Part shown: one piece after another, positions 12,401 through 43,518 of the stretch
Position numbering within the stretch: the first letter of the stretch is position 1
Layout: each line of letters starts with the position of its first letter
From: Balanoglossus misakiensis
Lineage: Eukaryota; Animalia; Hemichordata
DNA: 64,000 nt
Assembly (NCBI GenBank): GCA_040954595.2
Contig: CM082591.2
Coordinates: forward strand, 1,337,645 to 1,401,644
Direction: 5' to 3'
Notes under the pieces: generated by a model
Told to the model about the DNA's origin: nothing
What the model saw: only the letters and a program-made list of their open reading frames with translations
The model's database searches: none
Position numbers and translations under genes: made by a program

Positions 12401-15400
12401 CCAAGAATGTTGCATTTTTATTAGTGAAGTAATTTATTTATATTTTAGGACATTCAGTTCTATTTGTCCGCAGTATGTGGCCATCACGAGTTGGAGTGAT
12501 TAGTCAACTTGTGAGTCTACCAGTAGGCTTTGCCAACAAGACAAAACAACAATTTTGCAAAGCTCAATCAGGATATTTCAACATGCTAGCAAAAGAACAG
12601 GAAACTGTAGATGACACAGAAAACAAAAACTCAACTAAAAGTTGCTTGTATATAAGTTGCTCTTTATCCTAATTTTTGTAGCAGACAGTGTTAGAGCATC
12701 AGTGCCTGGGGAAGTGGGACCTACACAGCATGATGTGAAACGTCGAAGATGCCTGAGTGAAGGTGATATACCGGTAGAGTCAACCAAAAGTGGTGCACGT
12801 GTGGGCCTTGATCTTTACAGCTATGGCCGAAGAAGCTCCTTGCGATCAGTTGGTGAAAGTGAAACTAAAATGGAGGTACGTGATACTATGTACTATATCT
12901 CATAACAGTCCTGATTTACCACATGCAGATCCTATACCAAGCAGTGATCAACATGGGCCATCTGAAACACCCAAAAGGGAACTTTTTGACTTGCCCATAT
13001 TATGCCCATCCCATTGAAACCTCACACACCAGCATGTATTTATTCATGCATGCATATATCGACCTTTGTATCAGTTTTATTTAGAGGTTTTAAACGGCTA
13101 GCGAGAGTATTTGGTTGAGGATAGACAGACAGACAGACACACACACACACATACATACATTCATACATACACATAGATACATACATACATACATACTTAC
13201 CTACTTACTTACTTACATGCGTGTACGGTCTCAGACATAACATGTATATGTAAATAAACTTAAATTAATGAGTTCCAATCTGTATTTCTTGTACTCATAT
13301 TGATCCATACAATATGAATTATGATCAGTAAACAATTTATTGGGTGATAAAATACTTAGTTGTATAAAATGTGTCCAGTAAACTTGTCTGAGCGGAAGCA
13401 TGTATTAAAGGAATGTAATGAAATTCCTTACTACATGTACCATCATTTTATCTTTTTACAGAGAGAGGAATTGTTTGAAAACATGCAATTCATAAATGAG
13501 AGTCTTCATTTGAGAATGAGAAGGAGGCTACCATTAACTCCAGAAGATATTTCTGAAAGTGTGTGTGCCGTTCCAAATCGTTATCCAATACCAATCTTTG
13601 ATGGTTCCTGTCTGAAGAGTGTATCATTCACTGACGAACTACCGGTCAATTACAGTTATAGAAACTACACAACAGGGATCTTTGATTCTAGAGGTGGCTA
13701 CCTGTCAATCAAAGGAAGCAGCGTAGAACTCTTTATACCACCAGGAGCAATTGAAGAAGGAAGGCAACAGGAGATCAGTATTCAGCTAGACCACAAGACA
13801 GAGAGTGCTCCTCAACTCGCAGAAGGGGAAAGTCTTGTCTGTCCAGTTGTTGTGTGTCGTCCTAATGGTCTGTCATTCAAACAGAGAGTGGTGCTCAGTT
13901 TCCCTCACTCTGCACGTGGCGCAGATTATACACTGAAGCCTTTGATTTCAAAGCAGACACAGGAAGATCAACCAACTGACTATACTGACCTATCAGAAAG
14001 CCAAGATGGTTTGTGTCTTACTACTGATGACCGCTGCATCATGTTGCTGGACCACTTTTCAAACTACACTGCAAAAGGAGAAAAGGTCTTTGAAAAGGAA
14101 ATACTAGTTATGATTTTTGCAGACCTGCGAGATGAAGATGAAGTAAAATTACGAATTTGGTTTCTAGATGAAGACAACAAAGATGTAAGATAATTCTATT
14201 TTTATTGTCATTGCTTTCCACAGCCATTGCCCAACCCATAAGCAACCATGATTTCATCCACAGGGATTAAAAAATTCGCATTATGAGGGTATGATGAAAA
14301 TACCGCAAAGTATCATCACAAGGACATTAGTGACACGTATCGCCTGATGCATAGCAGAGGGCGATGCGCGGAACTATATGTCTGTTAGATTTTTGCTTTG
14401 CATATTACTTGGCTATCAAAACACTGGTACAATCGCCTTACACAGTGAGCAGACATCTTTCCTTATTTGTTAACAATGGAGTGAGGGAAGAGGGTCTTGA
14501 AACCGTCTGCAGTGAAAGTGCATACCTATACACGGTGAGATTGGGTGCCTTGAAACTGATGACGAATGGAACGGGGCTTCCATACGGCATGTTTAATGCA
14601 CGCAAAATTCTATTGTTCTTCATGGTGCCAGATGTATAATAATTCGTATTATTTCCATCTGCAGGAAGTATTGGAAGAGGAAAGAAGATTAGGTGGAACT
14701 GAAATTGATGCACCAAGCCCATTTACTGCCCATACATCTGGTGGAGATGTACAAGTGAGATTAGAGTGTAATGAGGATTGGAAAGCATCGAAATCATTGC
14801 TGGTATTAATTCTTTAAAACTTTGATAACTTTGCTCAAAACTGCATAAACGGTACCTTTGATAGTATTAACTAACATGCATAATTTGTCACCCATTATTT
14901 CAAGAAAATGCATCCATCCATTCAGTATATAAATACAGTATACAATATAATATAGACAATACAATACTGTAATAGTACAGTTTGATACAGTACAATACAG
15001 ACATATCGAGGTGCCACTTTTGTCAAACTTGTCAATGCTTTAATTACAGATCACATATGAAACAAGTTGAATTCAACAAAGCTCTTTCATTTTTATTTTT
15101 CTCAGAACATTCCAATGCGAGGAATTATGTCCAGACGAATGATGCCCCACAGGTTTATCATAACAAGGCAATCATTAACCACCAGATTACGTTTAGATGT
15201 TGGTGTAGCTCAACCAGGTTGTGTTAATTCTGATGAAATAGAATTTCCAATTTCTGAAAGAGTACCCCAAGTAAGCAGTCTATCAAGTGATTCATATTGT
15301 CATTACTTTCTATTACACTTGAAGAGACAAATATTTGAAATCTCATTTCAAAAGTACAAGTACATAAAATATGATGGGAATTGCATTTTTATTGTTATTG

Positions 15401-18196
15401 TTAACAGCTTCATTGAAACCAGAGTGAAATTAATTTACAACAGTAAGGCCACAGTAAGTAGATTCTTTGTTTTCCATTGGTGCACTGGTAGGTTTTCGAA
15501 AAACACACAAAGTTTTCTTGCAGAAATTTTCCACATCGATATTGTGTCACAAAAATAAGCCATGTCTTTTATTTTGCAGCAATCTTTGTTCAGTCATATA
15601 ACTATAAATTATGTGGTGATGTAAAGTAGTGTCAAATAATTTCAGGTATATGCATATAGCATGAGGAACTAAAATGTTGGTAGATTGTTTTTGTGTGTGT
15701 GTGTTTTATAACCGCTCAACCTACCTTTCAGGATTTTTAGTGGACAATGACAAAGAATTTACTTACGGTGCTTTGGACTAAGTATATATGTTACTTTTCA
15801 AAAACAAGTCTGAAATGCAAGTTAAATTATTTAAGTTTAGTGAGGTATGCAAATGTAAATACAGGTATATACATATAAGGTATACCATAATTGCATTGTC
15901 TTAAGTACTAATGACTGATTAGGTAACACATCATCTGCTAAGGATCAGTTAGCCACCATTACAAAACAAATGTATAGGACAGAAAACCATGTACAGTACC
16001 TGGTTGGATTTCTATTGCTGCACAAGCCTACTGAGTTGCAAGATTTATCTTTAGAGAGCAATTATATTGCCAAGAGAATTTAAAACTTATAATTCTAACA
16101 ATTTTGCTAATTTTATTGATAAATTTTAATTTTGCAAAGTATTCCTTTTTCCACAGAGTATGGCTGCAAATCATATGCATCAGGCTCATACTGAGAGAAG
16201 AAACTCTCCCCGCGTCCTACCTGCCCTACCACATGGTCTTTGTGTTGCAATAAGTCAACTTATGGATCTGCAAGATCCATGTGACTGTGACTGGCGACTT
16301 TTAGCTGACAAGGTGACGTTGAACGGCAAAACACTAAAACACTGTGACCGAACACTTCTGGAACAGTTATCACATGCCCGCAGTCCAACGTATCAGTTAT
16401 TGAGTATCTGGCAGTTATCCAGGAGAGGGTTTTCTCTGCAGCTTATAGAAGAGCTTAGAGATTTGTTCCAGAGTATTGGTAGAACTGATGTAGTTGAATT
16501 ACTGCAGACTTTTATCAAGCTGTGTAGAGAAGTTGGTGTGGCAGAAGCAGAGGCTGCTGTTGAACCTGAAATCCATGCACAAATGTGCAATCCAGGGTAC
16601 TACTCAACTGGTGACCAACAGCTCATACCTCAGCCCCAACAACTTTGCAGCCATCTCAGAATGGAAGAACAAGAAAATAGGAGAGGACCAGCAATGCCGT
16701 CATCTGTGCCAATTGTTCCACAAAGTCCACATCAAGGAACCCGAATATCAGTCACAGCAGAGGTACACAATTATCCAGTTAATGCAGGTCCACCGGTGGA
16801 ACATTCATCTGGACAAACTCCCCTCTCAGAACAGATACCCGCTTCAAATCCTACCCCACTACCCATTCCCAATGCCATGGAGTTTCCTCCAGACCGAGTG
16901 GAAGCTCCGGGAGCTCAGTCACAACTTCCCCAACAGATGCACGGAACAGAGGCAACAGTGGAACCATCAAATGCCTCACCATTTTGTTCACAGGGTCCAA
17001 ATAATCCTTACATGCAGTTTAGTGATACTAGTATGCAGAATCATTCATCTGTAAGAAAACGACTGCTCACAAGGCCATCAGAACTGACACCTGATGATGG
17101 TGAACTTGAAGATGATTATGTTGTCCCCCAAAAAAGACAAAACTTGGCAAATGACATTAATAATGGTGAAAGTGTACCTATGACTGTGAATCATCAGCCA
17201 GATCGACAGAATGCATACCGTCGTAGTATGACATTTTCAGAAGAAATACAAGAAGGGAATCTAGCAGCACGCCAATGGTTGTTTTCAGAAGGAGAACACC
17301 CTCCACATCACACAGAAGCACTATCATCTGATCGGAGAGGTGATCAGTATGTCTTTGAGGGAAATGGAGAATGTGGTCACATCATGGGTGAAGCATCAGA
17401 GCAGTCCTCAGTTGGTCCAGAGATTTCGAATTCTGAATATATTGAAGAAGGTGATGGCAGTCAAACTGAGACCAATAATGATTCTAACACAGCAAAGCAC
17501 GATAACGTGTCAAGGGGACGAAAATGTGCAAATAATATGCCTATGCTAAATCATATGATTGATGAATTACAGATATGCAAGGAGATGGGAGATTCTGACC
17601 CTCGCAATGAGTCAGGATATTATTCACTTGCTGGAGATCCAACAGATGCTCTCACAAGAAATCATAATCCTGGTAGCATTGAACACAATCCATCAAATAA
17701 TATGCCTATGCTAAAGGGAAATTCTGACCCTCGCAATGAGTCAGGATATTATTCACTTGCTGGAGATCCAACAGATGCTCTCACAAGAAATCATAATCCT
17801 GGTAGCATTGAACACAATCCATCAAATAATATGCCTATGCTAAAGGGAGATTCTGACCCTCGCAATGAGTCAGGATATTATTCACTTGCTGGAGATCCAA
17901 CAGATGCTCTCACAAGAAATCATAATCCTGGTAGCATTGAACACAATCCATCACAAACAGGTGGTCATGCCAACAGTCCAAGAAAGCAGTATAGTGGCAA
18001 TGTGTCTGACTTCAACACAGGAGAACAAGCAGTTCAAAGCGTAGAAGATGGTGACGAGAGGAAAAGTTGGAGTGCATCTGAAAAATCTACGGATGAATGT
18101 ATCAACTCAACAAATGATTCTGACGTGGAAAATAATTCAGAGTTAGAAAGTAATAATACAACTTCAATGGATTCAGAAGACGCACCATTACCTTGA
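6447..18196 (+). CDS. Gene A: multidomain immune-type protein with GT-B/GT4-like region (3 N-lobe repeats + C-lobe), coiled coil, ZU5-UPA, Death domain and disordered tail (~2150 aa)
   Basis: Exons 6447-8532, 8908-9117, 9768-10031, 11518-12150, 12682-12875, 13462-14184, 14665-14802, 15106-15270 and 16157-18196 join in phase at GT-AG. GT4-like motifs: VLFVYDDW, MINH, ADIIFSIGP, GLESIAVGLP. ZU5: FDSRGGYLSI..SSVELFIPPGAI...CPVVVCRPNGLSFKQRVVLSFPHSA...DHFS. Death fold: DWRLLADKV...SPTYQLLSIW...LRDLFQSIGRTDVVELL. Confidence 0.8.
6460..7295 (+). repeat. Coding tandem duplication, 420-bp (140-aa) period, GT-B N-lobe-like unit
   Basis: TCTGAGAA..TTTCTGAATTC...GAAGTGAGTGAAGAACAAAAGAAAGATGCA at 6558 and 6978. 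A third, more diverged unit follows at 7295-7700. Confidence 0.9.
12449..12545 (+). pseudogene. Degenerate remnant of the start of gene B's GT4-like exon inside a gene A intron
   Basis: ag|GACATTCAGTTCTATTTGTCCGCAGTA... versus gene B 23063 ag|GACGTTCAGTTCTATTCGTCTGCAGTA...; truncated after ~100 bp. Confidence 0.6.
15445..15772. mobile_element. Degenerate TIR-bounded non-autonomous element in a gene A intron
   Basis: Left AAGGCCACAGTAAGTAGATTCTTTGT and right ACAAAGAATTTACTTACGGTGCTTT form an imperfect inverted repeat. Confidence 0.4.
17588..17953 (+). repeat. Coding tandem repeat, 129 bp (43 aa) x ~3
   Basis: G(D/N)SDPRNESGYYSLAGDPTDALTRNHNPGSIEHNPSNNMPMLK repeated, nearly identical at the DNA level. 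Confidence 0.95.
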
Positions 18197-18265: not shown

Positions 18266-18620
18266 GCCGGAAAGTGTCTGTTTAACCTTGGGAATATCCA
18301 TACCATTGCTCAACATCTCATTAAGTGGTTGCTTATGGTGAAACGTGAAGACTGACCTTCAATTCATGTGTTCAGGTAAGATTGGTATGTCTAAGGTGTG
18401 TATGAGCATGTGTGTGTTTGTCATACTCCTATGTTAATGCATGAACTACAACTCAGTATGAGCATGAACATTTGCAGCAACATATATTCTCTGTAATGGT
18501 GCTAAATGTTTTTTTTCCAGACATCCATATTTCTGGGATATACAGAAGTGTCTAGATTTCCTTGGTGCTGTATGAAGACAACTGGACTGCCATTGACTGT
18601 ATGAAACCATACTTCTAAAT
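18266..18620 (+). pseudogene. Decayed kinase C-lobe and KEN exon remnants, paralogous to gene B, directly after the gene A stop
   Basis: 18266-18376 matches 27214-27321 (FNLGNIHTIAQHLIKW...KRED*, CGA>TGA stop, indels). 18521-18575 matches the HPYFWD exon at 27480. From ~18577 it matches the end of the last KEN exon (28657-28699). Confidence 0.85.
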
Positions 18621-19680
18621 GGTCAACCATTTCAGTCATAGACAATAGCGTCCTATTGTTTGTAACTGCAAAAACAAATTGTAACCATTTTCACAAGGAA
18701 AGGTCTTTCCAATACAACGTGAGTATTTTCAAACAATTTTCAGGTGAAATACCTGAAAGAGACAATTTATTATTCCTGGTGACAACTATCATATTCCTGA
18801 TTTTTAGTTCTATACACCACTTTTGAGACTCTTTTATTTGTGTTGTTTTGTTTCTTTCTTTCTTATATTCCATGTATTCTTGATATCTTGTCCCTTTATG
18901 TCCCATGAACTGCCATGTTAAGCATATCTTTCCTTTTATACTGTGATATTAGTTATCAGTACTTTGAATCTGTGAAGATCTGAATATAATGTTTTGTGTC
19001 CTCTTGCAATAGTTTGTAGTAAATGAGTACAGTACCTGTTTATTATTCAACTTTCTCATATTTTAATATTAACCACAATCAGAGGTTGAGAGTATGTTTG
19101 TGTATACCAATCAGTCAGCTTACTTAAATGGACCAATCTAAGTTTGAATTGAAATTTTAAATGGCAGCTCATGGGCTTTGATGGTTTAGATAATTGTTTA
19201 ATAATGAACACAACAAGAGTGTTATGTACCACATCAGAATTTTTGTTTTAGACTTTTCTTTTGTCATTTTTTTTTCTAACAATGTTTATCATGTAAGACA
19301 GTTTATTTGCTTATGTTCTAGTCCTTATTATTATTTTATATTTTTTATTCATTTAGAAATCAAGAAGTGTCTAAGTTTTGTCAACTTTTGCCAATTGTAA
19401 GTTCTATGGATGCACTCTAATGCATGATTAGATGGTACAATTCATGTCCATACATATTGGTGTTTTCAACCTTTCATGTTGCAGACACACTGATTTATTT
19501 CGATGAACATGTGTTTACCATGAACACAATGTAACACCTAGGTATAAACTGTGAATGCTTTCTTCCTTTGCTGCTGTAGGAAATAAAATGTGTTGAACAA
19601 AGATGTCAAAGTCTTTCATTATCATCAAACAAGTTGTCACAGACACAGAGTATGCAGGTAAGGCCCCAACCAGATTACAG
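18577..19680 (+). repeat. Segmental duplicate of gene B 3' end/3' UTR (28657-29792)
   Basis: Long colinear near-identity; the ORF track shows the twin spurious ORFs MFNNEHNKSV... at 19194 and 29297. Confidence 0.92.
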
Positions 19681-21554
19681 TGCGTCATGACCTGAATTGA
19701 ACCTGTAAACTTTGAACCCTGAAGCGCCACAATGAACACTGAAATGAATACATGAACTCAACATGTACTGTCTATTAACCATGTGCACTTTTATTGAATT
19801 TGAAGACCGCTTTTACTCTTCTTATATTATTAAGGAACAGTACATGGTGGAATTTAGCAGTGTGATCTAACAGGAGAGTGTAGGGGTAAACAATTGGATC
19901 GATACACAAAATTTGGATTGTGAAAATCAATTTTGGAGTTTGTCTGAAGACTTCCAAAATATAAGCTTTCAATGTTAAAAGTTTCTCTCTCTTTTATCCT
20001 TTACTAAGCAATAACATTACTGTAATGACTTGCATCAGTATACAAGAAAAGAAACACTGGGCATATCATTGGGGAGACTTTGCAATGCAATACGACCTAT
20101 TTTCTTGGTAGGATAAGGGGCCTAATTAGGAGGCGGGGCTTTGTTCATATACAATTCTGCAGGAGCTAGACGTGCGCACACAGAATTTGGCCTATTAACT
20201 TCATCAAGACTGGCTTATTCGTGTCTGATTGGTCGTCATTATGTCGTCGCTATCTGCCCATTAGGTAAGCAGGATCACACTTATCACAGAAAAAGTTGGT
20301 GTAAATTTCAACAAGCAAGTGACGTGCCTCTGAAATTGCCAGCCTGAGTGATATTGGGTCGCATGTAACTTGTAAGTTATAAAAGTGGTATATCGACTAG
20401 ACTCCTAGTGCACAGGGCCAGGCACTATAGAGTTATCTGTAATTTTATGGCTATTTTTCAGCGTGTTAATGAACACGGTAAATGATTTATGGATGTCCCT
20501 AGTATTGGTTACCTATTTATAGAAATGCATTGTTATATCAAGGGAAATCCCCTTCCCTCCCCCGTAGAATGATTGGGTCCAGAGAGGAATACATTGTCGG
20601 GTGCCCCCTCCCCCCCCCCCCCACCCAGGGGGAGGCATGAAACCATGATTGATACACAGAACAAACAGAATGAAAAGTTGTCAAAAGTTATACATAGCGG
20701 AGCTTTAAATTTGAACAACAACCAAATTAAATTTTTGCCCCAGGTGTGGTCTTAGAAATCCAGGACCAAATTGTTGTCTACCATTTTGTGACAACTTCAT
20801 ATATAACTCGGTATGAGTGCGGGACGAAACTTGGCATGGCACAGTGATTATAACCTAACTCTGCTATGCACTGGACTCCTTGTAATATAACCCCTTCCTG
20901 AAAAATAAAGTGATTGCACAACAATAAAATGCACCTGTGAAATATGAGCAGTTATACAGAACAGGTCTTGGAGCTGTAATCTATTTTCAAAGTTCTACAT
21001 GTATTTGTTTATCTCAAGCCCTAATTGAAACCAATGCAGATTACCCGCCATTGCCTTATTTGGGCACAAAAGTACCATGGAATATTATCTGAAATCCAGG
21101 GCAGGTGGCTTGTTGTGTGAGGTCATGTTAAGGTGACATCACATTTGCAGCTGATTGTTTAATCTGCTTGCAATTTTAATCGACCTAGTTCACAATTCAA
21201 ACAGCTATAATCTGCATTTTATGTTAAAAGCTGATTTCATTGTTTTTCTGTCACGTGAAACTCAACATTGTGAACTTTGCAAGACTTAAGTTAAAATTTA
21301 GTGGTTTTGTGCAAACATATCATTAACAACTAAAGCCAGCTATCATTGTTGAGAGGACGAAGTCTGTATCTTGACTCATTTTTGGTCCACTTGAGTTTTT
21401 GCTTTTGTGGTCGCGACAACACAGTGAGACACCATGACATCAGAGAGCCGCGTGCGTGTAAACACATGGTCAAAATTCACCTTTGACATCTGAGTCAGCC
21501 GCTGTACAGTCAGGTTTATTATTAGTCCCTGCAGCACTGGTTCTGTGGGTGTGT

Positions 21555-21565
21555 GAAACCGAAAG
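21555..21565 (+). promoter_or_regulatory. ISRE/IRF-like motif GAAACCGAAAG upstream of gene B; kB-like GGGAAATCCC at 20542-20551
   Basis: Matches GAAANNGAAA about 550 bp upstream of the gene B ATG. Motif match only. Confidence 0.3.
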
Positions 21566-22109
21566 AAACTATACAGTTTTATATCAAAGGAACAGGTGTG
21601 CAGCCTACTACTTCCTGGAAGAGTCTTTCTCAGTATTCAAGAAAAAAAGTGAATCATTCTACAAACAATTCACCTGGTTTATTTTGTTTTTCTTATCTCT
21701 ACCATATAGAGCTGAACACACCAATATATCACAGAAGGTGTGTTTTAATCCTGAGCCTGCAGAAGAGTTCAAATTGGGTGTTCGTCGATAAGTTTCAAGC
21801 ATAAACAGGCAAGCCATTACTGGTTATACCATGTGAGTGTGACTTTACTCTTTGCACCATTTTATTTTGACAAAATGAACCCAGAAGTTTTCTTGTCCAG
21901 CTAAGTTCAGAGGAGATATGTGAATCAGTAATTTTTATAATTTAATATCCAGAATAACTACAGTTGCTTGAGACAAGTCGGAATTGTCAAAAGGATCTGT
22001 ACTTATGTGTGTGTGATGTGTGCAGCATACAATGTATTCTAGCTGTCAATGACAAGCCGTCTGTCATTTATTTTTTTGTCTGTTTCAGATTGTGTAGTTT
22101 TAGGCACAC

Positions 22110-25100
22110 ATGATGGAAACCAAAATTGATATATTTAAAGGTTATATCTTCTCTCTATCACAAAAAATTTCTAACGGTAAGTCAAATATGATTTTGATCA
22201 CACGAGCAATTTACTACAACTCTGCTTTAATGACTGTCTATGACTCTATACATTTTTAGTGGTTAGCGAATTGTTTTAGCTCCCATTTAGTGTGTAAAGC
22301 AGTGGAATCAGCTATGATCATGCTCATTATTAATGCTGGTTCACAAATTCTGTTTACAGAACAACTAAAATCACTGGTTAAGTTGTCCAAAGAATTGAAT
22401 TCAAAGCCTATCACTCAGAGAGAAAGCGAGTCAATCACAGATCCATATGATTTGTTTGAAAAACTCACCAGTCACGGTCATCTCAGTAAAACTAAATGCC
22501 AGGTCTTGGTACATCTTCTTGAGAAAGCCAATTGCCAGGATATCGCTGATGAGGTTGCGGCAAGGTTTGACCTTGGGTTCAGTCAAGAAATAACAGACCA
22601 AGAGCTAAAGAAGAAGATAGAAGAGATGGATAGAAGTACAGCAGATATTCATATAGTTCAAGCAACTGCTGCCTCTGACTTTGCATCAGTTTCACCTCAC
22701 CAAGTTACCAAGCAGCCGTCTCGCGTTCCACTGCAACCGACAGATCAAAACCAGTCTGCACCAGGTCCACTACAGCAGTCTGCAGGCCAACAGTTTTCTG
22801 TACCAAACCCATCACATCCCATTGTCCACCAACAGTCTGTGCCAGGTCCATCACAACAAGTATCCATGGAGACAGAAAGTAGAGCACAGGATGAGATAGA
22901 CACATTCCCTGGAATAGACCATAAAAGTAATCCCATTTGCTACATTGTATTATAAGTTTTTTCATTTTTGTTTGATATTGTGTATTATCTATCTGTTGGT
23001 CTGTCAGTCTGTCTGCCTATATAGTGTCCATTTATGTATTTATTTGTTTATTTATTTATTAGGACGTTCAGTTCTATTCGTCTGCAGTAAATGGAATGAG
23101 GAGTTGGACAGAGTGTCTCTTGTCAATAAAAGTCTCGCTGCATCACTAGTCAAACAAGATGTGCCAACATACTCAACAACTCTGGGCGTTCGTGATTGTA
23201 CAATTACTCTAGATGATGTGACTGGAGTGAATGTTGTCAGTCCTGACAAGCAAACACTGAATCGACTTACTGTTCCTCCAAAGATTCCTGCTATGGATTG
23301 GTTGGGCGCTAGTCATGCCAGTTTTTACCCACACCTGAAGACTGGAATTCCTCATCTTGATCTTGTGGTTGGACACTTTGCAATGGGTAGTGACAGCCAG
23401 CTGCTGAATGCAGGCTTAGCTATAAAACAGGACATTGCCAATGATTCCAAGTTCTTCTTCATGAATCACGAAATTCCGGAAGAATCTGGTGACAATGCCT
23501 TGGAAAACAGTGCATATGAGGTTGCAAAGAAGGCTGATGTCATCTTCTCTGTGGGTCCTTATGTATATGCACATTACAGTAACAAGTATAAGCCTTTGGA
23601 ATCAGTACAACACATCTGTTACTATCCTGCTCTGAATGAGGAATTTACAAGAATGATGTTGCAACCATACCACGAAGGCAAACAACAAATCCTGACAATA
23701 TGCAGCGTGGACTCAGAGGATGACTTCTCTCGATACGACGTGGTTGCCCTGGCAATGGGGAAGGTTGGCAATAGTTTCAAAAATGTCCACACAACTGTTC
23801 CAGTATGGAAGCTTTATGGTGTGAGTGAAACTGTCAGTGCAAAGTTTCGGGACTATCTCATCCAGAAATCAAAGTGTAAGGACCTGCACATTCCGCAACC
23901 TTGTTCCTCTGTTACTCTGCGCCATCTGAAACTTGCCATGCAGCAGAGTGTCTTACTTCTGGCGCCGGAGAAAAAAGATCCATTCAACTTTGCAGCCTAT
24001 CTTGCTATGCAGGCAGGTTTGCCAGCTTTAGTTCCAAGTTGTTCTGGAATTTACCTTTTTCTGGAAAAGCTTTATGCAAGGGACGACTACAGCAGCTATT
24101 GGTGTGTTGACACTGGTCTCTATGACAACACAGCTGACGAAGACAGCAGCAAATGGTCAGAGAAGATCATCCGTAGTATTAATGCCAAGACCTGTGGGGT
24201 TTCCTTCCAGAGAGCCAAAGAACTTCAAGAGAAACTGAGAGCTAATCCTGAAATAAAGAAATCCCAACAACAGTTTCTGGAGAAGTGTCAAGAAGTGCTG
24301 AACTTTGTGAATGGTAAGTTGGCTGTAGATAAAAATTGATTCCATCTCAGTTGAAGTTGGAATTAGTGCGTGTCAGCACTTTCCCTGAGGCAAGTCTGCT
24401 CAATTGAGCCATGAAACTTGGAACAGAGCTGTATATGACACAGGCAATACGGTAGTTACAATAAGCGCATTGCTCTTTGTCTTAATTTTTGTAGCAGACA
24501 GTGTTGGAGCATCAGTGCCTATGGGACCTACAGAGCATGGTGTGAAACGTCGAAGATTCCAGAGTGAAGGTGATCTAGAGTCAACTAAAAGTGGTGCACG
24601 CAGCAATGATCGGCGAACCTCCTTGCGACCAGTTAGTGAAAGTGAAACTTCAACAGAGGCGTTACCACCATCTCGCAGCAGTCCTGCTTTGTCACAGAAT
24701 ACAGCAGATCCTTCACCAAGCAGTGATCAATATGGGCCTGCCAAAACCATCAAACAGGTATTGTTAGACATCATTATACCGTATGCTCACTCATTGTAAA
24801 CTCACACCAACATGTTGGATACACGCATGCATACATCCACAACCTTGTTGTTTTCTGTGTGTTAAGGCTTTAAATTTATGTATATTCATTTTCAAAGGAA
24901 TATCTATAAAGTTTACAAAGTTTGCAATACAAACATACTCAGTACAATACATAACTTACATGTATACCATACATGTATAGTACATTTCACATATCATAGA
25001 CAATAATTTCGTTTGTGGAAACTCCCTTGCACATGTGATTTTTTAAATCAATTTAATGTAATTTGAATTCACTTTTCAGATACCCCAAATCAAGAAAGAA

Positions 25101-28100
25101 ATTCAGAAGGCAGTAAGTGAAATGTGGGGAGACAAAATAAGAAGCCTACGTGATCTTCCAGCAGAGCAGTGTGAAGTGATTGAAAGTACTCAACTTGGAC
25201 AAATTAAATTCCGTCGAAAATCAAAAGAATTACGGATTGCCTCAGGGTAAGGCTGCATGTTGAAGTTTTAGATCATCTGGGATCAAACAGATCTTTATGG
25301 TTATCATGATTTGTATGTAGCCTGTTGTCATAAATTAGTTTGGGGATGTTTTCTATCCATCCTCTATTTCGCTATTGACATGTCACTATTCGAATTACAC
25401 ATGACTGCATGGACTGAAATTTGTAGAAAGATTGTAAGATATTCATGTATATCACAACATAACATTAACTTAGTATGTGCAGTACAACTCGCCAGTAGAT
25501 TACTGCAAGGTGACTAACAATAGACCATTTCATGTCGAGTATGTAAACAAAATCTTGCATGAAGCAAAAACTTATTTAATTATTCACATTTGCTCCAGCT
25601 AGGTTATGAATCCAGGAGTAATTTGATTCATGTCTGAAATTGTAGATGTCACGGGACTGTTGTATACCTTGGGTATTGTGCCAAGAACGACTGTGGAGTA
25701 GCAGTGAAGTGTATCCCTCATATTGATGATGAAGTGGCCAAATGCATACAGAGCGAATGTGATGTCTTCAATAAACTTGATACAGAGGTTGAGAACATCG
25801 TCAGATGCTATGTAAGTAATATATTTTAGAATATAGAACATTATATATACCAGGTATGTTGAAATAACTTGAATGCATACTGTCAATGCATGCCATCTTT
25901 TAATATCGTCATAAACATCAATACACACAATTGCCAGTAGTTTAAGTCACTAGAATCCTGGTACACATAGACAAATACAACACATTACTAGGCCATGAAA
26001 ACAATAGCTGGAAGTAACTGACATTAATTGGAAACCGAATTTTGATCCGTAGCTCAATATCAAATTGGTTGTATTTTTTTGTAGGACACGATTGAGAAAG
26101 ACAGCTATACATACTTAGTACAAGAACTTTGTGAAAAGACCTTAAAACAGCATGTGGAATTGTTGACCAGTGACGGTAGACTACAGAAGGAAGCAAAAAG
26201 AATGATTATTGGAATGTTGAGTGGTTTGAAAGTGCTGCATTCATGCAATCCACAGATTGTTCACAGAGATCTCAAAGTAAGAAAAAATTTATTGTTTTGG
26301 AAATAGTTACTAGTGTCAAGCTTATAAGCATTGTGTGAGTTGAGTCAGCATAGTTATTAGACAGAACATTATTACCATAAATACAAATGATAAAAACAAC
26401 ATACTAGAACTCAACTATTAATACATGTGCATACATACATGCAGTTTTGTGTATGTACTCTTACAAATGTACCGGTTTATGCATTTCCAATGAGTATGTC
26501 TTTTGCCAGTCACAAGAAACTTCACCGTCTGTGGTCATGCCTTCATCCAAGTGTATTTCATTTTTCAACAGCCTGAGAATGTTCTGATTGATTGTGATGG
26601 CAATGTGAAGATTGCAGATTTTGGTATCTGCCGTCCTGTTGATGTTGATGCAACTGCAAGCACATTTTTGACAAGTGGTGCAGGTAAACTCGGTTATTAT
26701 AAAACCTCTGCAATTGAGAATCCTGCAACTATCAACCCAAAGAAGTCAAGGTTCAAAAAGTCAAAATGACTCAAGAAATGAAGACCCATATAAGGTTGAA
26801 ACATTTGTCAATATAAAAAAAAATATTAATATATTCTTCATTGTCTTTCTTTGTACATGAAGGTAGTATGTGTTGGCAAGCAACAGAAGTACTTGAGGGA
26901 TCAATTAATGATGATGGTGGTCCAGATGAAGTGAAACAAGTACACTACAGTCACAGAAGTGATATTCAGGTATAAGCCATTATCATAATTGTCTTGCGAA
27001 CATTTTAAAACTTAATTGTGTGAGCAATTAACACTTAACATCTGTTATGGGTCTCTGTGCAATTTGAATTATATAATATGGGCTGATAGGTGATCTGTAT
27101 GTGTTCTGATTGTTATTCTTGTAACAGGTTGCAGGGATGTTGATGGCCTACATATTATTAGGTGGTGTGCATGCATTTGGGAAAAACCTACGCATGGTGC
27201 TAGATAACATACCGGCAGGAAAGTTTAACCTGGGGAATATCCATACCATTGCTCAACATCTGATTAAGTGGATGCTTAAGGTGAAACGTGAAGACCGACC
27301 TTCAATTGATGAAGTGTTCAGGTAAGAGTGTAGACCTGTCCATATAAGTCTAAGACGTGTGTGTGTGTCATAGTTGCCAAATACTCCTATGTTAATGCAT
27401 AAACTACAACTCAAAATGAGCATCACAATTTACAGCAACATATATTTTCTGTAATTGTGCTAAATGTGTTTTTTTCCAGCCATCCATATTTCTGGGATTC
27501 ACAGAAGTGTCTACATTTCCTTGTTACTGTAGCAACTGAAGTGGAATGCCACAGCAGGTATTAATCCTTAACCCAAATTTTGCACCATTTTATCACAGAA
27601 AATTGGGTGTTTAAAGTGCTTAACTTTCCAACATACTGTGTGTGACATGGACACACATCTACCATCTACCATTTTTGACATCATCATCATCATCACAACT
27701 ATAATTTTAATATAGACCCATCACAATTGAACATACAATATCTGCGTAGAAATGATGTGAATGGAAAAATAACAAACTTATAAAAATACAAATAATGTTT
27801 ACGATTGTTAAGTATTTTACAACTGTATTTACAGTTTATATAAGTTTGTGTGAGGGTTGATCTATTTATATCTTCTTTTTCTAGTGGAGGCCTTCAAAGT
27901 TTCCACACTGAAGTAAATAAAGATTGGGTGAGTTTTAAAACTAATTTTTACTTTCTATTTTATTGTTGAATTGTGGAACTGAAAGTCAATCAGCTGTGGT
28001 TCATACATGACTTTATTTTGTGTCCAACCCTGTCTCATAAATGGTTCTTTTATGTTGTGGGAAAAAGTTTGTGAGGAATGATTAGCTCTTAACAAAATCA

Positions 28101-28699
28101 AAGTGGACAAGAACTTGATAACATTGATGTCTTAATTTTTGTACATAAATGTAGCATGAAAAAGCAACCAGTGGACCATATCAGAGTTTGCTTCAAGCTG
28201 AATGCACCGGTACAATTGTGGATTTTCTGAAGTTTACAAAGAACTGCACTGACCACCAGGATAGGTGAGCAGAATCTTGATTCTTTAAAGTTAACATTAA
28301 GCAAGATGTCGGCAAGTGCAAAGTTGATGGAAATAAGGTAGATGGTGTAGATGGTTTGGGAAGGAATGGTCTTCTGTATACTAGTACTTTGTGTTCACCT
28401 CCATGGATTCAATTTTACTGAAAATTGTACAAGGATAGCACTAATATTTCACTTAAAAATATCTCTTTCAGTGTAGATTCAAAGTCTAGTTTCCATGCTA
28501 ATAAGCTGTCATTAAATATTAACTTGTGATTTCTTTTATATGTTTTTATTTCAGCAATGAAGCAAAAAGTGTTAGTGATTATATCCTGGCTGAATTCTCT
28601 GACATGTTTGTCCATGTTTATGACGCAGTGCATCAAACCAGGAAATTACCAGACCAAGACAACTGGACTGCCATTGACTGTATGAAACCATACTTCTAA
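22110..28699 (+). CDS. Gene B: DED + GT4-like + IRE1/RNase L-family Ser/Thr kinase + KEN ribonuclease-like domain (~1153 aa)
   Basis: 14 exons join in phase without stops: 22110-22176, 22360-22926, 23063-24313, 24495-24757, 25080-25246, 25646-25811, 26085-26276, 26572-26683, 26863-26969, 27128-27321, 27480-27557, 27885-27927, 28155-28264, 28555-28699. DED-like: FKGYIFSLSQKISNEQLKSLVKL...DPYDLFEKLTSHGHLS...LVHLLEKANCQDIADEV. Kinase: IASGCHGTVVYLG, VAVK, ELCEKTL, HRDLKPENVL, IADFG, GSMCWQATE, SDIQVAG. KEN: HPYFWDSQKCLHFL, DFLKFTKNCTDH, YILAEFSDMFVHVYDA...PYF*. Confidence 0.88.
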
Positions 28700-30506
28700 A
28701 TGGTCAACCATCTCAGTCATAGACAATAGTGTGTATCCACGAGGTCCTATTGTTTATAACAGCAAAAACAGATGGTAACCATTTTCACAAGGAAAGGTTT
28801 TTCCAATATTTTTCAAACGTGAGTATTTTCATACAATGTTCAGGTGAAATACCTGAAAGAGACAATTTATTATTCCTGGTTGCAACTATCATATTCCTGA
28901 TTTTAAGTTCTAGACACCATCTTTGAATCTCTTTTATTTGCGTTGTTTTGTTTCTTTCTTTCGTACAATCTATGTATTCTTGTCCATTTTATGTCCATGT
29001 GCTGCCATGTTAAGCATATCTTTCCATTTATACTTTGATAATAGTCATCAGTACTTTGAATCTGTGAAGATCTGAATATAATGTTTTGTGTTCTCTTGCA
29101 GTAGTTTGTAGTAAATGATTACAGTACCTGTTTATTATTCAACTTTCTCATATTTAAACATCTACCACAATCAAAGGTTGAAAGTATGTTTGTGTATACC
29201 AATCAGTCAGCTTTCTTATATGGACCAATCTAAGTTTGAATTGAAATTTTAATCAAGAAAAAAATGGCAGCTCATGGGCTTTGATGGTTTAGATAATTGT
29301 TTAATAATGAACACAACAAGAGTGTAATGTACCACATCAGAATTTTTGTTTTAGACTTTTCTTTTAATTGTTATTTTTTTTTCTATAATGTTTATCATGT
29401 AAGACAGTTTATTTGCTTATGTTCTAGTCCTTATTTATATTATTTTATATTTTTTATTCATTTAGAAATCAAGAAGTGTCTAAGTTTTATCATCTTTTGC
29501 CAATTGTAAGTTCTATGGATGCATTGTATTGCATGATTAGATGGTACAATTCATGTACCATACATATTGGTGTTTTCAACCTTTCATGTTGGAGACACAC
29601 TGATATATTTCGATGAACACAATGTAACACCTAGGCATAAACTGTGAATGCTTTCTTCCTTTGCTGCTGTAGGAAATAAAATGTGTTGAACAAAGATGTC
29701 AAAGTCTTTCATTATCATCAAACAAGTTGTCACAGATACTACTGGTACAGAATTTCCACAAGTATGCAGGTAAGGCCCCAACCAGATTACAGATTCTCTG
29801 TTATGTAGTCCCTGCTCTGTCCTGTCCGTCCCTGCATCCATCATAAAAGATGTGCACCTGGATTTTTTTTTAAATGTAGCACTTATCGTAAGGTTTAATG
29901 ATATAGCTACATTTACCTGATGTGACACAATACCTTATGTCATTAAGTAAAAGTATTGAAAAATGTGAGAGAGTTGTATGAATGTAGTACCCAAAATAGC
30001 ATATATTCTGTAACATTGGACATCATACCCAACAGTGGAAAGGTTGCAATTTTATTTTGATAACAGATTTAGTCGTTGATATGATAATATTTACAGAAAT
30101 TTTTAAAGACAAAATACAATATATTGTGAAGACTCGTTGGCATGTTATCAAGTTGTCGCTGGTAAAAAGCTTTGATCATGAAAATGCTAAAAAAAGCTAA
30201 GAATCGCAAAAGTGCACAAAAAGACAACATTTCAAATTTATATATTTCCTATCAAAATATAGTTCATTTCTGGTAGAAAAATAGTATCCATCTCTGTAAA
30301 CGTAGTTATGAACATTCACTTAATCAATATAATCTGTAAAAAAAAATTAGTACCGGTATATGTATAAAAATATGCAAACAGTGTTCAGTGTGAAATTCAA
30401 CTGGAACTGTGATCTGTAATAAGTTTTTATTAGTCTTTATTATAATTATCAATGTACCGGTATATCACTGTTCAAATTACATCGCTGTTTAAGGAACCCA
30501 ACTTCT

Positions 30507-33195
30507 TTATATGATCAAGTTGTCATTAACAAGATACATTCCCATGTATGTCGACTCCTGACTACAGTCTAACTCCACTTCACTGCTTGGTAGGTACACC
30601 TTCATGAAGATCTTATCCCCTTCTCGAAGTTTAAACAAACCTGAATGGAAACTGCTATAGTAATTGCTGATGCCATCTTCGATGCGTACACTTTTCATAA
30701 GATCGATGGTATCTGCTGAATATGATGGGCTGTCTGTTAAAAGGAGGTTTAAATTAGCATAATGTGTGGTGTTTTATCCATTCATTGGATGTTGGATGCA
30801 ATTGGACGTTTTTGGTTTCCTTTCAAGTTCTGGTTCAAAGTATACCGGTAGTTGGATCAAACTGTGACATTAGGAAACTCTCCAATTACATGTTAACACA
30901 CATACAGGCATGTATCATATCCGGAACTGTGGGTTACTTGTGTCATGTAATATATTTACCTAACACTGTGTAATGAACATATTCTGTGTCTTCTTGGTCA
31001 TCCTCTCTGTAGTCTTGAAAGTAGGCCTGAAAATTAAACATGGAATTGGAATAATTTGTACTACATGTAGTTTAAAACTTTGTCTACCATGTCTGGCAAG
31101 TTAACCAATCAAGAAATCAATCAATCAGTCCATCAATTGATCGAGCATTCAAAACTGAATCAATTGCAATGCAATGGACAGTTCAAAATTTCCTGGCTAA
31201 AATCTCTTTTTGTGTCAAAGGGATTTAGACTTTTAGTGTCTCTGTACTCACTTGTGAATAGACATGATAGAGTCCAGACTTTGGAACAATCAAGTGATGG
31301 CCATCGCTTAAAACATTTTCGTTGAATGCTGTCCCATAAGTGGCTTCCCAGCGACCAACTTTGACTGTACTTCCGGTTTGAAAAGTTTCAAGGACTTTGT
31401 CTGCGAGGATTGTGAAAGAAACGTGGTGATATCACTTGGAAGGAAAGTTGTTTTCCGAACTTGAATACACATTTTAATGCTGATTATATTTCTCTGTCTC
31501 TTTAATTTCAAAACAAGGCGAGCTCTGCTGTAGTGTTGGACTTTCACTTTTGCTTCAATTTCATAGAATCAGGCTATTTCGGTTGAAGATCTTTTGCTTC
31601 GTACAAACGACAAAACGAAAGCTATGCAATTCTCATGAATTGAAGCAGTGTTTGTACGATTGTATTGAGTGAAAAGTTTCCAGAAGCATTATATCATTCT
31701 ACTCTGAAAAAGAAAGTGAAAGAATTGAACTGTTGGTGTTGGTTGCACAACTTTACAATTAAGCCTGTCTCTTCTTTTTTTGGAAAGTTACGTTTCCGAT
31801 TGTCCAGTCATGTTGGTTTTTGTCTACAACGCCTTTGACTTCAGGGTGTTGCTGGTTTACTTGCTTGACTTTCCAGTCACTCCTTTTGTCCCAAGTCCGT
31901 TTTAAATTTCAAATAAGTCCTTTGACGTCAATTTCCGTGTAAGCTATTTTCCCTCGACTTTGTTTCTATCCGAATATTTGCTTTTGCATTACTCCGACTT
32001 ATCGTGAACTCAACGAAAATCAACTTTATTTGAAAACATATCAACAGCCGCTGTAAGTTCATTCTGATCAAGACTGGCGGCCATTTTGTACAATAACAAT
32101 GATCGTTACCAACTATCGTATCCTTTTATTCGGCTATTCCCTTGTAATTGTCCTAACAAGATATTGCCATACTTACTCCCTCCGAAGCAACCACTAGTCC
32201 CTGTCACGTGGGTAGCAACGGGAACACTGTTCCCACTCCCTGAAGATGGCTGTGAGCTTGTTCTATTTCGATTAAGCAGATATTCAACATATCTTCCAAT
32301 AGCTCCAAGAGTTAATTGATTTCCATCTAGAAATAATTAACAAGATAACCCGGAACGCACGGAGAATAATTATAGTTTCGTGATTTTGTTTAATTTTTAT
32401 GGTTATTTTTCGTTCTTGACTTCCTCAAAGATCAGGATAATTTATGAACACACGGAAACGCGTAAAAGCCAAAACTCTCTGTGAAACAAGTCCAAACGTA
32501 TCTAAACTGTATTTTATTGGCGGTTTTGAGCACTTCAGTGAAAATAGCACGACAGTGAAGGAGGTAGCGTAAATATATTTTACCTGATGCATATTCTCTA
32601 TTCCATCTTCGTTTCTCCTCTTCCAAGATTGTTGATATCATCTAATATGACACGGAATGCAGACGTTTCATTAGGGCCTGGGCAGAATTAACGGGGGGGG
32701 GGGATACCAATCACAAGTTGCATGAGTCAATCGAACACAAATTCATTTTGTGTCACCCTGTTTTGGCATTGGGTGATGGGGGGGGGGGTCACCCACTTTT
32801 CCATGTTCAATGGGGGTCAGTCACTTTTTGATATCCACAAAATACAATCCACCCCCACCGGCCAAAGAAACTGACCAGCTAAGAATTTGCCACTAATAAA
32901 AACATATTACCATTAATAGGGTTTCCTGGTTTGCAGAACAACACTGTAGTAAATTCTGATTGTCGTTCGCATCGTTTGTGTTCTTGTGTTGAGCGCTGTT
33001 ACAGATACACTCGGTTGACGCTGCATAGCTTTTCAAATGCTCGAGTTCTTGATGCAGTTTAGATACGTTGCCTCGAATGTAGACGCACAGTATTACGATG
33101 ACAAGTCCATAGATAAGAATTGGGACAATTATTTGCAAAACAGCAAAAAGTGAGGTCCTCGTTATAAAGTTAGTGTCCTTCTTTTCGTTCGGCAT
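30507..33195 (-). CDS. TNF-superfamily ligand 1 (TRAIL/TNFSF10-like type II membrane protein)
   Basis: Six exons (~33195-32915, ~32641-32583, ~32327-32173, 31400-31252, ~31027-30961, ~30734-30507). N-terminal TM helix, VATHVTG, RWEATYGTAF, LIVPKSGLYHVYSQAYF, DLMKS, YSSFHSGLFKLREGDKIFM, TYMGMYLV. Confidence 0.9.
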
Positions 33196-33476
33196 ATTTG
33201 TGCTCGATGACCACACTCTGCAGACGCCTCGACGGGGTTTCCTCTATGTGGGGAAACAAGACTACCAGAATTCTAACGGCATGGACGGTGTAAACGTAAA
33301 GTCTGTCATCAAAGAAGCAATGATCAATGTCTATTTTTAACTGTAGCACAGTAACGACTGTGTCAGCTGAACCGCTGAAACTTACTGGGTATTTGTGTAC
33401 AGTGGCATCTGCATTTTATTTCATGACAACGCGAACGTTTCCAAAAATCGCCCTACTTGGAAAGGATGGGTTATCA

Positions 33477-33525
33477 GTTTCGGTTCACGCGACACAGGCC
33501 TGATAGTTTCGGTTAAAACGAAAGT
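33477..33525. promoter_or_regulatory. Cluster of IRF-like half-site pairs upstream of TNF ligand 1
   Basis: AGTTTCGGTTC, AGTTTCGGTTA and AAACGAAAGT within 50 bp, ~300 bp upstream of the ATG. A kB-like GGGGTTTCC lies at 33234-33242. Confidence 0.4.
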
Positions 33526-34844
33526 TCATCTACAATACAGTAATTCGGTGATTTGACGAAACGACCCTTATAAATCAATCTGCAGGTCTCTTGTGACAAA
33601 CTTAGTGTTTTTGGTTTCGCATCCTACCACTTACCGGTCACTATAATCGCTATTTCTCGCTATTTCTGTCATGGTGACAACCGACCTATATTCGATATCA
33701 GCAAATTCCATAGTGCACTTGTTATAGTACCAATATAGAACCAACAAACATTCTTGTCTAATCTATGAACCCCATATCATTCTCTTCCCCTAATTTACTT
33801 TAAGGTAGTTCGTCTAGATTACGTCGACCGTACCAGTTTGGAAGGGCTGCACCCTTCCTGACTAAACACACCTGACCTGGACGAGTCAGCCTATTACCAC
33901 CCCAACCGATTTAGTGCGCCATCTTCAGTTCAAATTGTGTATTTGTACAAGCGGACGTAACCGATGTTCTGGCTTGTCTACCTCAATGCTCGGTCTACAA
34001 AGTTCTGGAAAAGAGTCGCATATCAACGACTTTACCTGTAATTTACATATAACCATATGCGGTGGCGCTATTTCAGGCGGCCACTCACAGAAAATCTGTA
34101 ATTGACTAGATCTCCACTTGCCATTGTTACTGTGGCTGATTCAACAAAACGATAACCAAAGTTCCAATAGGTCTAGAGAAACAACTCCTGGTAGTGACAC
34201 GTGTACAAGCAGAGCCAGCTTAGAAATGTACCATTAACAAATCAAAATAATCACAGCTAAATCCAATATTACTATTTTCTTTCTTTTATATCAAATACGT
34301 GTAGAATGATTTACACATACAACTGGGGTAACAAAGTTACGAGATTATAAAGTATAAAAATAAAATTACGAAGTTTGATTTCTATAATAGGCAAAGTCAT
34401 GCGTGTATAAAGTAAATTTCAACTTCTGTGTGCGAAATGTTCGCGTTAAATGTTTTAAAGTCGCTCAAAACGAAATGTTATGTACAATTGCAATGTTTAC
34501 ACGGTAAAGAGTTCAATTTGTCCACTAATTAAAATGGCAGCACCAGTGTTCAAGAGCCGATGTGTAGAAATTGAAAATCAGGAACATCACCATCATTTCA
34601 GGGAAAATCACTTCAAAAAAGTTTGCGTTTGTACAGGCAATTGTAGCAATATGTACAGCATTGAATGAATAATGGCAAAATACAAGCGAACACGAAAAAC
34701 TGAAAACAACGATTCCGTTACTTGTAAAAAACCGTCGTATTTTTCTGTATATACAATTTTTAGACAGTAGTAATAATAGTTTTGTAAAAAAATATGTAAT
34801 TTATATACATGTTGGATCAATTTGAAAGGTGCGCATGCGTCAAA

Positions 34845-35493
34845 CTATTCTGGATAATAATCACTGACGAGATACATTCCCATAAATGTTGAATCTTGGG
34901 AACTGTCGATTTTTATGTCCTCGTGTTGTAAGAATACTTTCATGTAGATTTTGTCACCCCGTCTCAGTTTGAACAAACCTGAGTGATAACTGCTGAAATA
35001 ATATCCGTTTTCTGCTCCCCCGTCGAGTTCCTTTGTGCGACCGCTTTTCATCAGGTCTGTGTGTTGAGGTGTGTACGCTGTGCTATCTGTAATGAAGTGA
35101 AATCATAAATACAATGACTGAACTGAACATCAATGAAGTTTCTCAAGAGCAGAATATGGGGGAGGGGCAGTGTTTTCGACATTTCTGACCTGGTTACAGT
35201 CACGCGTTTATGAGATAAGGCTTGATAGAAGCATGGCAAAGTCTCAAAGAACAATCACAAATGGGGTAGATTAGACTGGTGATAGACAAGTCTCATTGTA
35301 TGTTAATTCAAGTACCGATAGTTAGTCCATCTGTATCTTGAAGGACTTGTTTTGAATGTCACTTTACTGTAATTAGCTGCTTACATACCCTGTACTGTAT
35401 AGTGCAAAAACTCGTCGACTGAGAGATCTCGTCTGTCTTGCTCTTGTCTCTCGTCACGGAAGTAAACCTGGAGATAAAACGAGATAATATCAA

Positions 35494-35570
<77 letters not shown>

Positions 35571-35611
35571 ATATTTGTTCAAGTTGCATATTTTTGTTCG
35601 TTTTGTTTGTA

Positions 35612-35663
<52 letters not shown>

Positions 35664-43065: not shown

Positions 43066-43518
43066 GGTCGAAGCGTGTTTTCAGCACAACGGGTGTGAAG
43101 GCAGCAAAACAGGCAGTCGTTTAGACATACTTGCGCGCAGAGGAACCGCAACGGGACCGGGTATACAATCTACAGGAACAGTCATATGCTATTGTTGCTT
43201 CCTTCTCAGGAGTACCCCAAAACTTCACAAGTAAATTTAAATAATGAATATTCATGATTGCGCGGAACGGCGACCAGTTACCAAGAAAGCTCGTTGGTGT
43301 GTAGTTCGTTGTTACAATTAATGTCATATGGAATTGGCCGTGAATTAATGAAGTTTATAGTTTCATGGACCCGAGATATGTTTTTTTTTTGTTCAGTTTG
43401 TTTTGGATGGATTTCTATACCGAAAAAATGCAATCGCACGAGAAAGCTTCCTTATTGTTTAACCTGCAAACCCCTAATTTCATATGGAATGGTCCAACCA
43501 TAAAATACGGTGTTAGCC

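Follow-up and report, generated by a model that had tools for sequence, protein, structure and literature searches.

A predicted cytosolic DED, GT-B, kinase and KEN protein of the acorn worm Balanoglossus misakiensis and its apparent kinship with RNase L

Introduction

Can a kinase-KEN module, known from the transmembrane sensor IRE1 and from the ankyrin-bearing RNase L, be placed under an altogether different input domain? The question is raised by a predicted gene at 22110..28699 (+) in a stretch of 64,000 nucleotides from the acorn worm Balanoglossus misakiensis (GCA_040954595.2, contig CM082591.2, positions 1,337,645 to 1,401,644; hereafter the window). An earlier sequence-only reading had described it as 14 in-phase exons encoding a DED, a linker, a GT4-like domain, a kinase and a KEN domain, with RNA cleavage as the supposed output. 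Our analysis supports a single gene encoding a predicted cytosolic protein with a DED, a GT-B domain, a kinase and a KEN domain, and on our best reading of its active-site residues the logic of RNase L appears to be inverted in it, with an active kinase and a likely dead RNase.

Results

Gene structure and domain content

The gene begins with an ATG at 22110 and ends with a TAA at 28697-28699, and its exon borders were set by hand from positions 21000-30000. All 13 introns are GT-AG and measure 136-399 nt, and the joined coding sequence of 3462 nt gives 1153 amino acids (aa) with a single, terminal stop. A pseudogene was rejected on account of the open frame and the intact splice sites. The parts of the gene are as follows.

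22110..22176 (+): exon 1, aa 1-22, initiation codon and DED helix 1 (P0274 and P0004 align from residue 1-5; intron 1 gap-free)
22360..22926 (+): exon 2, remaining DED to about aa 100 (about 22592), then a Q/S/P-rich linker, aa 105-212 (PF01335, composition)
23063..24313 (+): exon 3, entire GT4-conflict/GT-B domain, aa 213-628 (PF20706 at E 1.8e-21, structure model)
23977-24003 (+): remodelled donor site in exon 3, C425-S426, R435 and D517-x2-N520-x4-L525 (motif comparison)
24495..24757 (+): exon 4, aa 629-716, linker rich in S, P and R (composition; no Pfam family found)
25080..25246 (+): exon 5, aa 717-771, helix preceding the kinase and first part of its N-lobe (aligns with all kinase-bearing acorn-worm relatives)
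25646..25811 (+): exon 6, end of the Gly loop, VAVK (K793) and helix C (E809)
26085..26276 (+): exon 7, from the kinase hinge to the catalytic-loop motif HRDLK (D889) (PF00069 at E 4e-8)
26572..26683 (+): exon 8, PEN and DFG (D907) (PF00069 at E 1.2e-5)
26863..26969 (+): exon 9, end of the activation segment (W-x-A-T-E) to SDIQ
27128..27321 (+): exon 10, kinase C-lobe (Pfam, alignment)
27480..27557 (+): exon 11, end of the kinase domain (HPYFW), then KEN helix 1 (KEN profile)
27885..27927 (+): exon 12, short KEN exon with less sure borders
28155..28264 (+): exon 13, KEN catalytic helix with C1086 (Tyr site, 28203), K1098 (Arg site, 28239), N1099 (28242) and H1103 (28254)
28555..28699 (+): exon 14, final KEN helices and stop codon

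Within the kinase, the junctions of introns 5-10 (6/6) were gap-free in 5/5 homologues; those in the linkers and the KEN loops (introns 2, 3, 11 and 12) were gap-free in 0-1 of 5 homologues, so the borders there are less sure. The product has no transmembrane helix, the highest 19-residue hydropathy over its 1153 aa being 1.66 and located in the kinase C-lobe, its predicted N-terminus is a DED and not a signal peptide or luminal domain, and no ankyrin match to Pfam was obtained in the window exons scanned or in the acorn-worm relatives. The sequence-only reading had likewise seen no signal peptide, transmembrane helix or ankyrins, and it was borne out here, as it was on the exon count and the order of domains.

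The domains were identified by Pfam for the DED, the GT4 domain and the kinase, by a custom hidden Markov model (HMM) for the KEN and by a structure model for the GT-B fold. Pfam was run on single exons or exon pieces and not on the joined protein. The DED (PF01335) scored E 1e-6 and 29.3 bits against a cut-off of 35.9 with exon 2 alone (32.1 and 36.5 bits in the two DED-bearing relatives); it was identical at 46/100 positions to P0274 and at 36/95 to P0004, and it had no match among PDB sequences at E 10. Exon 3 matched the GT4-conflict family PF20706 with 77 bits against a cut-off of 26, over profile positions 1-374 of 385, and Pkinase matches were present in four exons (E 4e-8 to 0.09). Three KEN exon pieces gave no match in Pfam, but an HMM of 51 non-hemichordate KEN domains matched the final 124 residues (aa 1030-1153) with 33.6 bits and E 5.6e-8 (profile positions 1-137 of 143; best of 200 shuffles, 6.4), and the same region in the closest relative carries the ESM Atlas label Ribonuclease 2-5A at 0.91.

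Phylogenetic position of the kinase-KEN

Two trees, containing no RNase L sequence, were used to place the kinase-KEN. In the 61-row tree, the 10 acorn-worm rows formed one clade (Shimodaira-Hasegawa-like approximate likelihood ratio test, SH-aLRT, 98) within an animal non-IRE1 kinase-KEN group (93) that was separate from IRE1 (97), with three long rows (one sea-squirt sequence and a pair of ankyrin proteins) in neither group. In the 27-row tree, from which the long rows and the outgroup kinases were omitted, the non-IRE1 group was supported at 100/100 and a constraint uniting the acorn worms with animal IRE1 was rejected (approximately unbiased (AU) test, p-AU 0.00034). The kinase-KEN of all GT4 fusions was monophyletic (98 SH-aLRT; 100/100). 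The non-IRE1 clade also includes kinase-KEN proteins from fish, lungfish, amphioxus, Lingula and cnidarians, and at the N-terminus its members carry ankyrins, TPRs, or a ubiquitin-like, TIR or HEPN domain, a variety expected for a swappable input module.

The relation to RNase L was read from KEN profiles. Profile A3 ranked human and pig RNase L first (82.3 and 77.0 bits) against all 16 IRE1 sequences (57.8-66.6); it consists of 12 rows, five of them from acorn worms including two window exons, and the ranking therefore applies to the clade and not to the window alone. Profile A2 ranked IRE1 above RNase L but itself includes IRE1 sequences, and its ranking was left unused. Bearing indirectly on the likeness to RNase L that the sequence-only reading saw in the pre-kinase segment, a fish relative and a clade profile matched RNase L from residue 317-318, that is, upstream of the kinase, a comparison in which IRE1 crystal constructs may begin later; the best PDB sequence match of the whole kinase-KEN was IRE1. 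Together, the tree and profile comparisons support a kinship of this kinase-KEN on the RNase L side rather than with IRE1.

An IRE1 orthologue that has lost its transmembrane helix was rejected by the tree and the AU test, and a true RNase L was rejected by the absence of ankyrins and the intact kinase. Matches to P0121 and P0127, which are plant and oomycete multi-repeat kinases, score through their repeats and were set aside.

Active sites of the kinase and the KEN

All the catalytic motifs are present in the window kinase (K793, E809, HRDLKPEN with D889, and DFG with D907), and VAVK/AVK, HRDLKPxN and DFG are retained in 10/10 acorn-worm rows (9 genes). The kinase domain of RNase L is a catalytically inactive pseudokinase. 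In the window KEN, the catalytic Tyr is replaced by Cys (C1086) and the Arg by Lys (K1098), and the Asn (N1099) and His (H1103) are kept at exact spacing; all four sites lie in exon 13 and are thus independent of the splice model. Among the acorn-worm rows, the Arg was found in 0/10, the His in 1/10 (the window copy alone) and the full Tyr-Arg-Asn-His set in 0/10, and the catalytic helix is deleted in 4/10 (the KEN of P0126 is short and possibly mis-predicted). The full set is present in 13/13 aligned IRE1s (16 chosen, 3 unaligned dropped) and in 19/26 aligned non-IRE1 relatives (28 chosen, 2 dropped), with the Tyr column read at -12/-13. KEN catalysis in IRE1 is reported to use the Tyr, Arg, Asn and His, the loss of the His costing at least 3x10^5-fold and a Tyr-to-Phe change about 10-fold (PMC3149027), and the Arg and His are both reported as necessary in the RNase L KEN (PMC3710099). 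These residues suggest that RNase activity is not what the acorn-worm family conserves, and the window copy may keep a little of it. The proposal of RNA cleavage as the output is thereby weakened, and it could still hold for this gene.

Outside the acorn worms, an intact Tyr-Arg-Asn-His set was observed in non-IRE1 kinase-KEN proteins of fish and lungfish (P0008, P0009, P0131, P0137), Lingula (P0148), amphioxus (P0144, P0204) and Xenia (P0006, P0007), whose N-termini carry ankyrin, ubiquitin-like, TPR or tandem kinase-KEN repeats. Ray-finned fishes are included among them and, to our knowledge, have no true RNase L. Judged by their KEN residues, these proteins would be more plausible as active RNase L analogues than the acorn-worm proteins are.

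The GT4 domain

The AlphaFold2 model of the GT4 domain, built on a 12-row alignment, reached a predicted local distance difference test (pLDDT) score of 88 and a predicted template modelling score (pTM) of 0.87, against a pLDDT of only 35 for a single-sequence fold, and predicts two Rossmann lobes in a full GT-B fold. It aligned over its full length with BshA, MshA and sucrose-phosphate synthase at template modelling scores of about 0.67-0.69, with Z 29.2 and a root-mean-square deviation (rmsd) of 3.7 over 363 for 6KIH, and Z 28.8 and rmsd 3.9 over 358 for BshA. A homodimer prediction in which the alignment was not used scored 0.00 against a mark of 0.32 and is evidence neither way. The top ESM Atlas clusters for the GT4 exon were cnidarian GT4-conflict proteins (0.98). 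We also observed, for window positions 23065-24312, a phage (Uroviricota) hypothetical-protein cluster in the ESM Atlas at 0.98 by features. Prokaryotic GT4 loci could not be confirmed in genome contigs; five weak, motif-only loci in metagenomes were not used.

In GT4 enzymes, the Glu pair of an E-x7-E motif is reported to bind the sugar and the ribose, and nearby Arg/Lys residues to bind the diphosphate (PMC8760489). In the 10 rows of the fusion clade, the second Glu is Leu (7/10) or Phe (3/10), the first is Asp (9/10) or Asn (1/10), and the Gly-Arg ahead of the motif is C-[S/N/D/Q] in 10/10, with Arg in 0/10 and with N520 and C425 invariant. The window copy itself has D-x7-L, C-S and R in place of E-x7-E, Gly-Arg and Lys, and the N-terminal Gly-Gly-type loop is likewise replaced in the fusion-clade domains. 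The amphioxus GT4-conflict protein P0265 has the canonical donor motif, aligning to solved GT4 enzymes. The GT4 domain is the best-conserved part of the protein, with 47-61% identity to the Ptychodera and Glandiceps copies against 28-42% for the KEN, which argues that it is under constraint, and 48 of its positions are invariant among the fusion-clade rows. In keeping its fold while its donor site is uniformly rewritten, the domain fits a binding module that is not catalytic, and the earlier idea that the GT-B domain may be a sensor gains from this comparison of motifs.

The acorn-worm family

A search with the GT4 exon among longer proteins gave five matches of 7993 candidates, all GT4 plus kinase, all from Ptychodera flava and Glandiceps talaboti and 47-60% identical; a kinase-KEN search from a relative, with a look-up of 30 proteins, added more from these two species and one from Saccoglossus kowalevskii. 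The acorn-worm entries, from three genera, are automatic NCBI models named "uncharacterized". GT4 and kinase are joined in eight of the models from three species, and all four parts occur in two, XP_070559085.1 of P. flava (43% identity to our gene model over aa 1-1132) and XP_077994471.1 of G. talaboti (36% over almost the full length). P. flava P0122/P0267 is nearest in sequence to the window kinase-KEN; P0122 (53%) is its sister in the tree, and the model starts with the tail of a GT4 domain. On this sequence evidence, the DED/GT4-kinase-KEN relatives form an acorn-worm-wide family, of which the gene is one member. Neighbouring accession or locus numbers fall on one contig each in P. flava and G. 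talaboti, which indicates clusters of tandem paralogues.

Gene neighbourhood

Remnants of a duplication of the gene lie upstream of it in the window.

18280..19680 (+): relic of the duplicated focal gene, last part of exon 10 through the middle of exon 11 (83%) fused to the last exon-14 codons and 3' flank (88%, 1163 nt)
12433..13063 (+): more relic pieces, intron 2 to the start of exon 3 (83%) and the exon 4 region (72%), within the upstream GT4-ZU5-Death gene

The larger relic has stops and a frameshift, and its KEN core is deleted. Its duplicated 3' flank may act as the 3' untranslated region of the upstream GT4-ZU5-Death gene, and the exon-4-like piece at about 12683-12876 is open with splice signals and may have been co-opted as an exon of that gene. 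The upstream gene (6402-18196, +) has a 717-aa exon with two partial GT4-conflict repeats and one full repeat, followed by exons for a coiled coil (11502-12167), a ZU5 domain (13360-14193) and a Death domain (16130-18196, with a 129-bp repeat x2.8). It has a PIDD/UNC5-like tail on a GT4 head, and its GT4 retains the second Glu of the donor motif. Downstream, at 30507-43080 (-), three tandem genes resemble TNF ligands of the type II membrane kind.

32893-33243, 37222-37695, 42613-43080 (-): transmembrane exons of the TNF-ligand-like genes
near 30507-30773, 31228-31422, 34860-35096, 35579-35944, 39716-39949, 40349-40513 (-): TNF exons of the TNF-ligand-like genes

The tandem paralogues, the local relic and the adjoining GT4-ZU5-Death and TNF-like genes suggest a fast-changing immune locus, with which they fit; proximity shows no functional link. 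Elsewhere in the window, an exon-like open reading frame piece is duplicated at 2148-2507 and 3554-3679 (+), about 1.4 kb apart with 88% aa identity and no Pfam match at E 0.001, and an 87-bp satellite of 50 copies (98% identity) at 59599-63989 creates long spurious open reading frames on both strands.

Discussion

We tentatively propose, at a little under an even chance, that the protein is a cytosolic immune signalling kinase switched by a GT4 ligand and/or by its DED, and not an RNA-cutting enzyme. The GT4 domain, without sugar transfer, would act as a clamshell module for a ligand or as a scaffold; a ligand at GT4 and/or recruitment of the DED to a death-fold platform would cluster the protein; and clustering would set the kinase-KEN units back to back, by analogy with IRE1 and RNase L. 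The output would be mainly phosphorylation, with the KEN as a dimer surface or an RNA-binding remnant and at most a weak nuclease in this copy. An immune role is suggested by the domains present, by the tandem expansion and by the gene's surroundings. Only the DED and the neighbouring TNF-like genes hint at the link to death-receptor signalling that the sequence-only reading had drawn.

Several points weigh against this proposal. Only two of the relatives examined, P0004 and P0274, bear a DED, so that it is dispensable to some of them or their models are incomplete. The window copy keeps the KEN His, and the loss of the Tyr hydroxyl costs IRE1 only about 10-fold (PMC3149027), so it may still cut RNA. 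This is the ground for an RNase L analogue, which we regard as unlikely, in which a GT4 ligand or DED polymerisation dimerises the kinase-KEN and the KEN cuts RNA, or in which a His-bearing copy is catalytic in heterodimers with nuclease-dead paralogues. H1103 and N1099 at their exact spacing and the Lys at the Arg site would fit it, as would the report that Lys fills the role of the KEN Arg in RNase A and that dead IRE1 H1061N activates the wild type in trans (PMC3149027), and the clade KEN profile puts RNase L first; against it, both Arg and Tyr are lost, the Arg being reported as necessary (PMC3710099), the sister P0122 has neither Asn nor His, and the His is missing in 9/10 acorn-worm rows. 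A related reading, to which we likewise give a minor share of belief, is a cytosolic receptor family in which the GT fold senses a small molecule or glycan on an RNase L-lineage kinase-KEN and paralogues form heterodimers, the His-bearing copy being the nuclease and the others supplying a kinase and a dimer surface. If true, acorn worms would have invented an RNase L-like pathway independently, one that responds to a new class of ligand, and the family would include the first immune sensor built on a GT-B pseudoenzyme.

On the GT4 side, all 8 rows that extend to H347 in the N-lobe share this His and R435 is basic in 8/10, so an enzyme with another donor is conceivable; the weight of each donor-motif Glu is reported to differ among GT4 enzymes (PMC8760489), and Kaur et al. 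interpret the GT4 domains of metazoans as effectors rather than sensors (PMC8195603). An effector GT4 domain that still transfers sugar, from an unusual donor, and would modify invader or host molecules while the DED and the kinase-KEN regulate or place it, would agree with that proposal, with the full two-lobed GT-B fold and with the 48 invariant positions, but we consider it improbable to a similar degree, since the ribose-binding Glu and the Gly-Arg are lost in 10/10 rows and the Gly-Gly-type loop is replaced, whereas the related amphioxus domain keeps them. The GT4 domain is a single phase-1/phase-1 exon between disordered linkers, and a degraded duplicate adjoins the gene, as might be expected of an exon-shuffling product with a non-immune, decoy or scaffold role and no ligand-gated switch; three genera nevertheless retain the join of GT4 to the kinase, and the GT4 fusions have kinase-KEN parts that form one clade, and we hold this explanation to be distinctly improbable. 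Least credible, and very improbable in our judgement, is that the DED-GT4 and kinase-KEN parts are two genes fused by annotation. P. flava does have a GT4-only model (P0264) alongside the kinase-KEN model P0122/P0267, closest to the window kinase-KEN, but introns 3 and 4, which flank exon 4, are short (181 and 322 nt), GT-AG and in phase, the eight NCBI models of three species join GT4 and kinase, and P0267 itself opens with a GT4 tail.

Comparison with known systems

The architecture is real and apparently undescribed, but the component domains and shuffling of this type are known from the literature. Kaur et al. (2021) report fusions of metazoan GT4 domains to DED, Death, NACHT, caspase, TIR and ZU5 domains, and to PIN and HEPN in Saccoglossus (PMC8195603); the protein shares their GT4-conflict family (PF20706), but theirs are proposed as enzyme effectors and the acorn-worm fusion subfamily has lost the donor motif. 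The word "kinase" is absent from rows 1668-2771 of the source data of their Figure 6, which bracket the metazoan rows seen, and long Saccoglossus GT4-only rows there could be unrecognised members. Full-text literature searches, which cover few subscription papers, found no description of a GT4-kinase-KEN protein, and the relatives are only "uncharacterized" NCBI models, in agreement with the earlier statement that no characterised protein with the DED-GT4-kinase-KEN order was known. XP_070559085.1 and XP_077994471.1 have the same four-part architecture, but their KENs are without the His or without the entire catalytic helix. A GT4 domain on a kinase read-out, with its donor site changed in a conserved way, would offer a tractable test of the function of hundreds of coral, amphioxus and acorn-worm GT4-conflict domains, and its ligand would reveal a new signal, of microbes or of danger, that marine invertebrates sense.

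With IRE1 (ERN1/Ire1p), the protein shares a kinase with full catalytic motifs followed by a KEN, but it has no signal peptide, luminal domain or transmembrane helix, belongs to a separate clade and has an incomplete catalytic KEN set. The animal non-IRE1 PK-RNase proteins fall in the same clade as the window protein; most keep Tyr-Arg-Asn-His, and none of those examined has a GT4 domain. Chu et al. (2023) describe PK-RNase clades beyond RNase L, confine RNase L proper to jawed vertebrates and derive it from one such clade by ankyrin gain; the text of their article mentions neither hemichordates nor glycosyltransferases, although a protein of this kind could appear in its Figure 2 or supplement (PMC10400998). 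RNase L itself (ankyrins, kinase-like domain and KEN; PDB 4OAU, 4O1O) likewise sets a cytosolic input module before its kinase-KEN, and the clade KEN profile fits it best; the acorn-worm protein has GT4 and a DED in place of the ankyrins, canonical kinase motifs, and a KEN without the Tyr and Arg. The same kinase-RNase chassis that gained ankyrins in RNase L would have been coupled, in a sister deuterostome lineage, to a different input module and followed the opposite course, in which the kinase was kept and the nuclease eroded.

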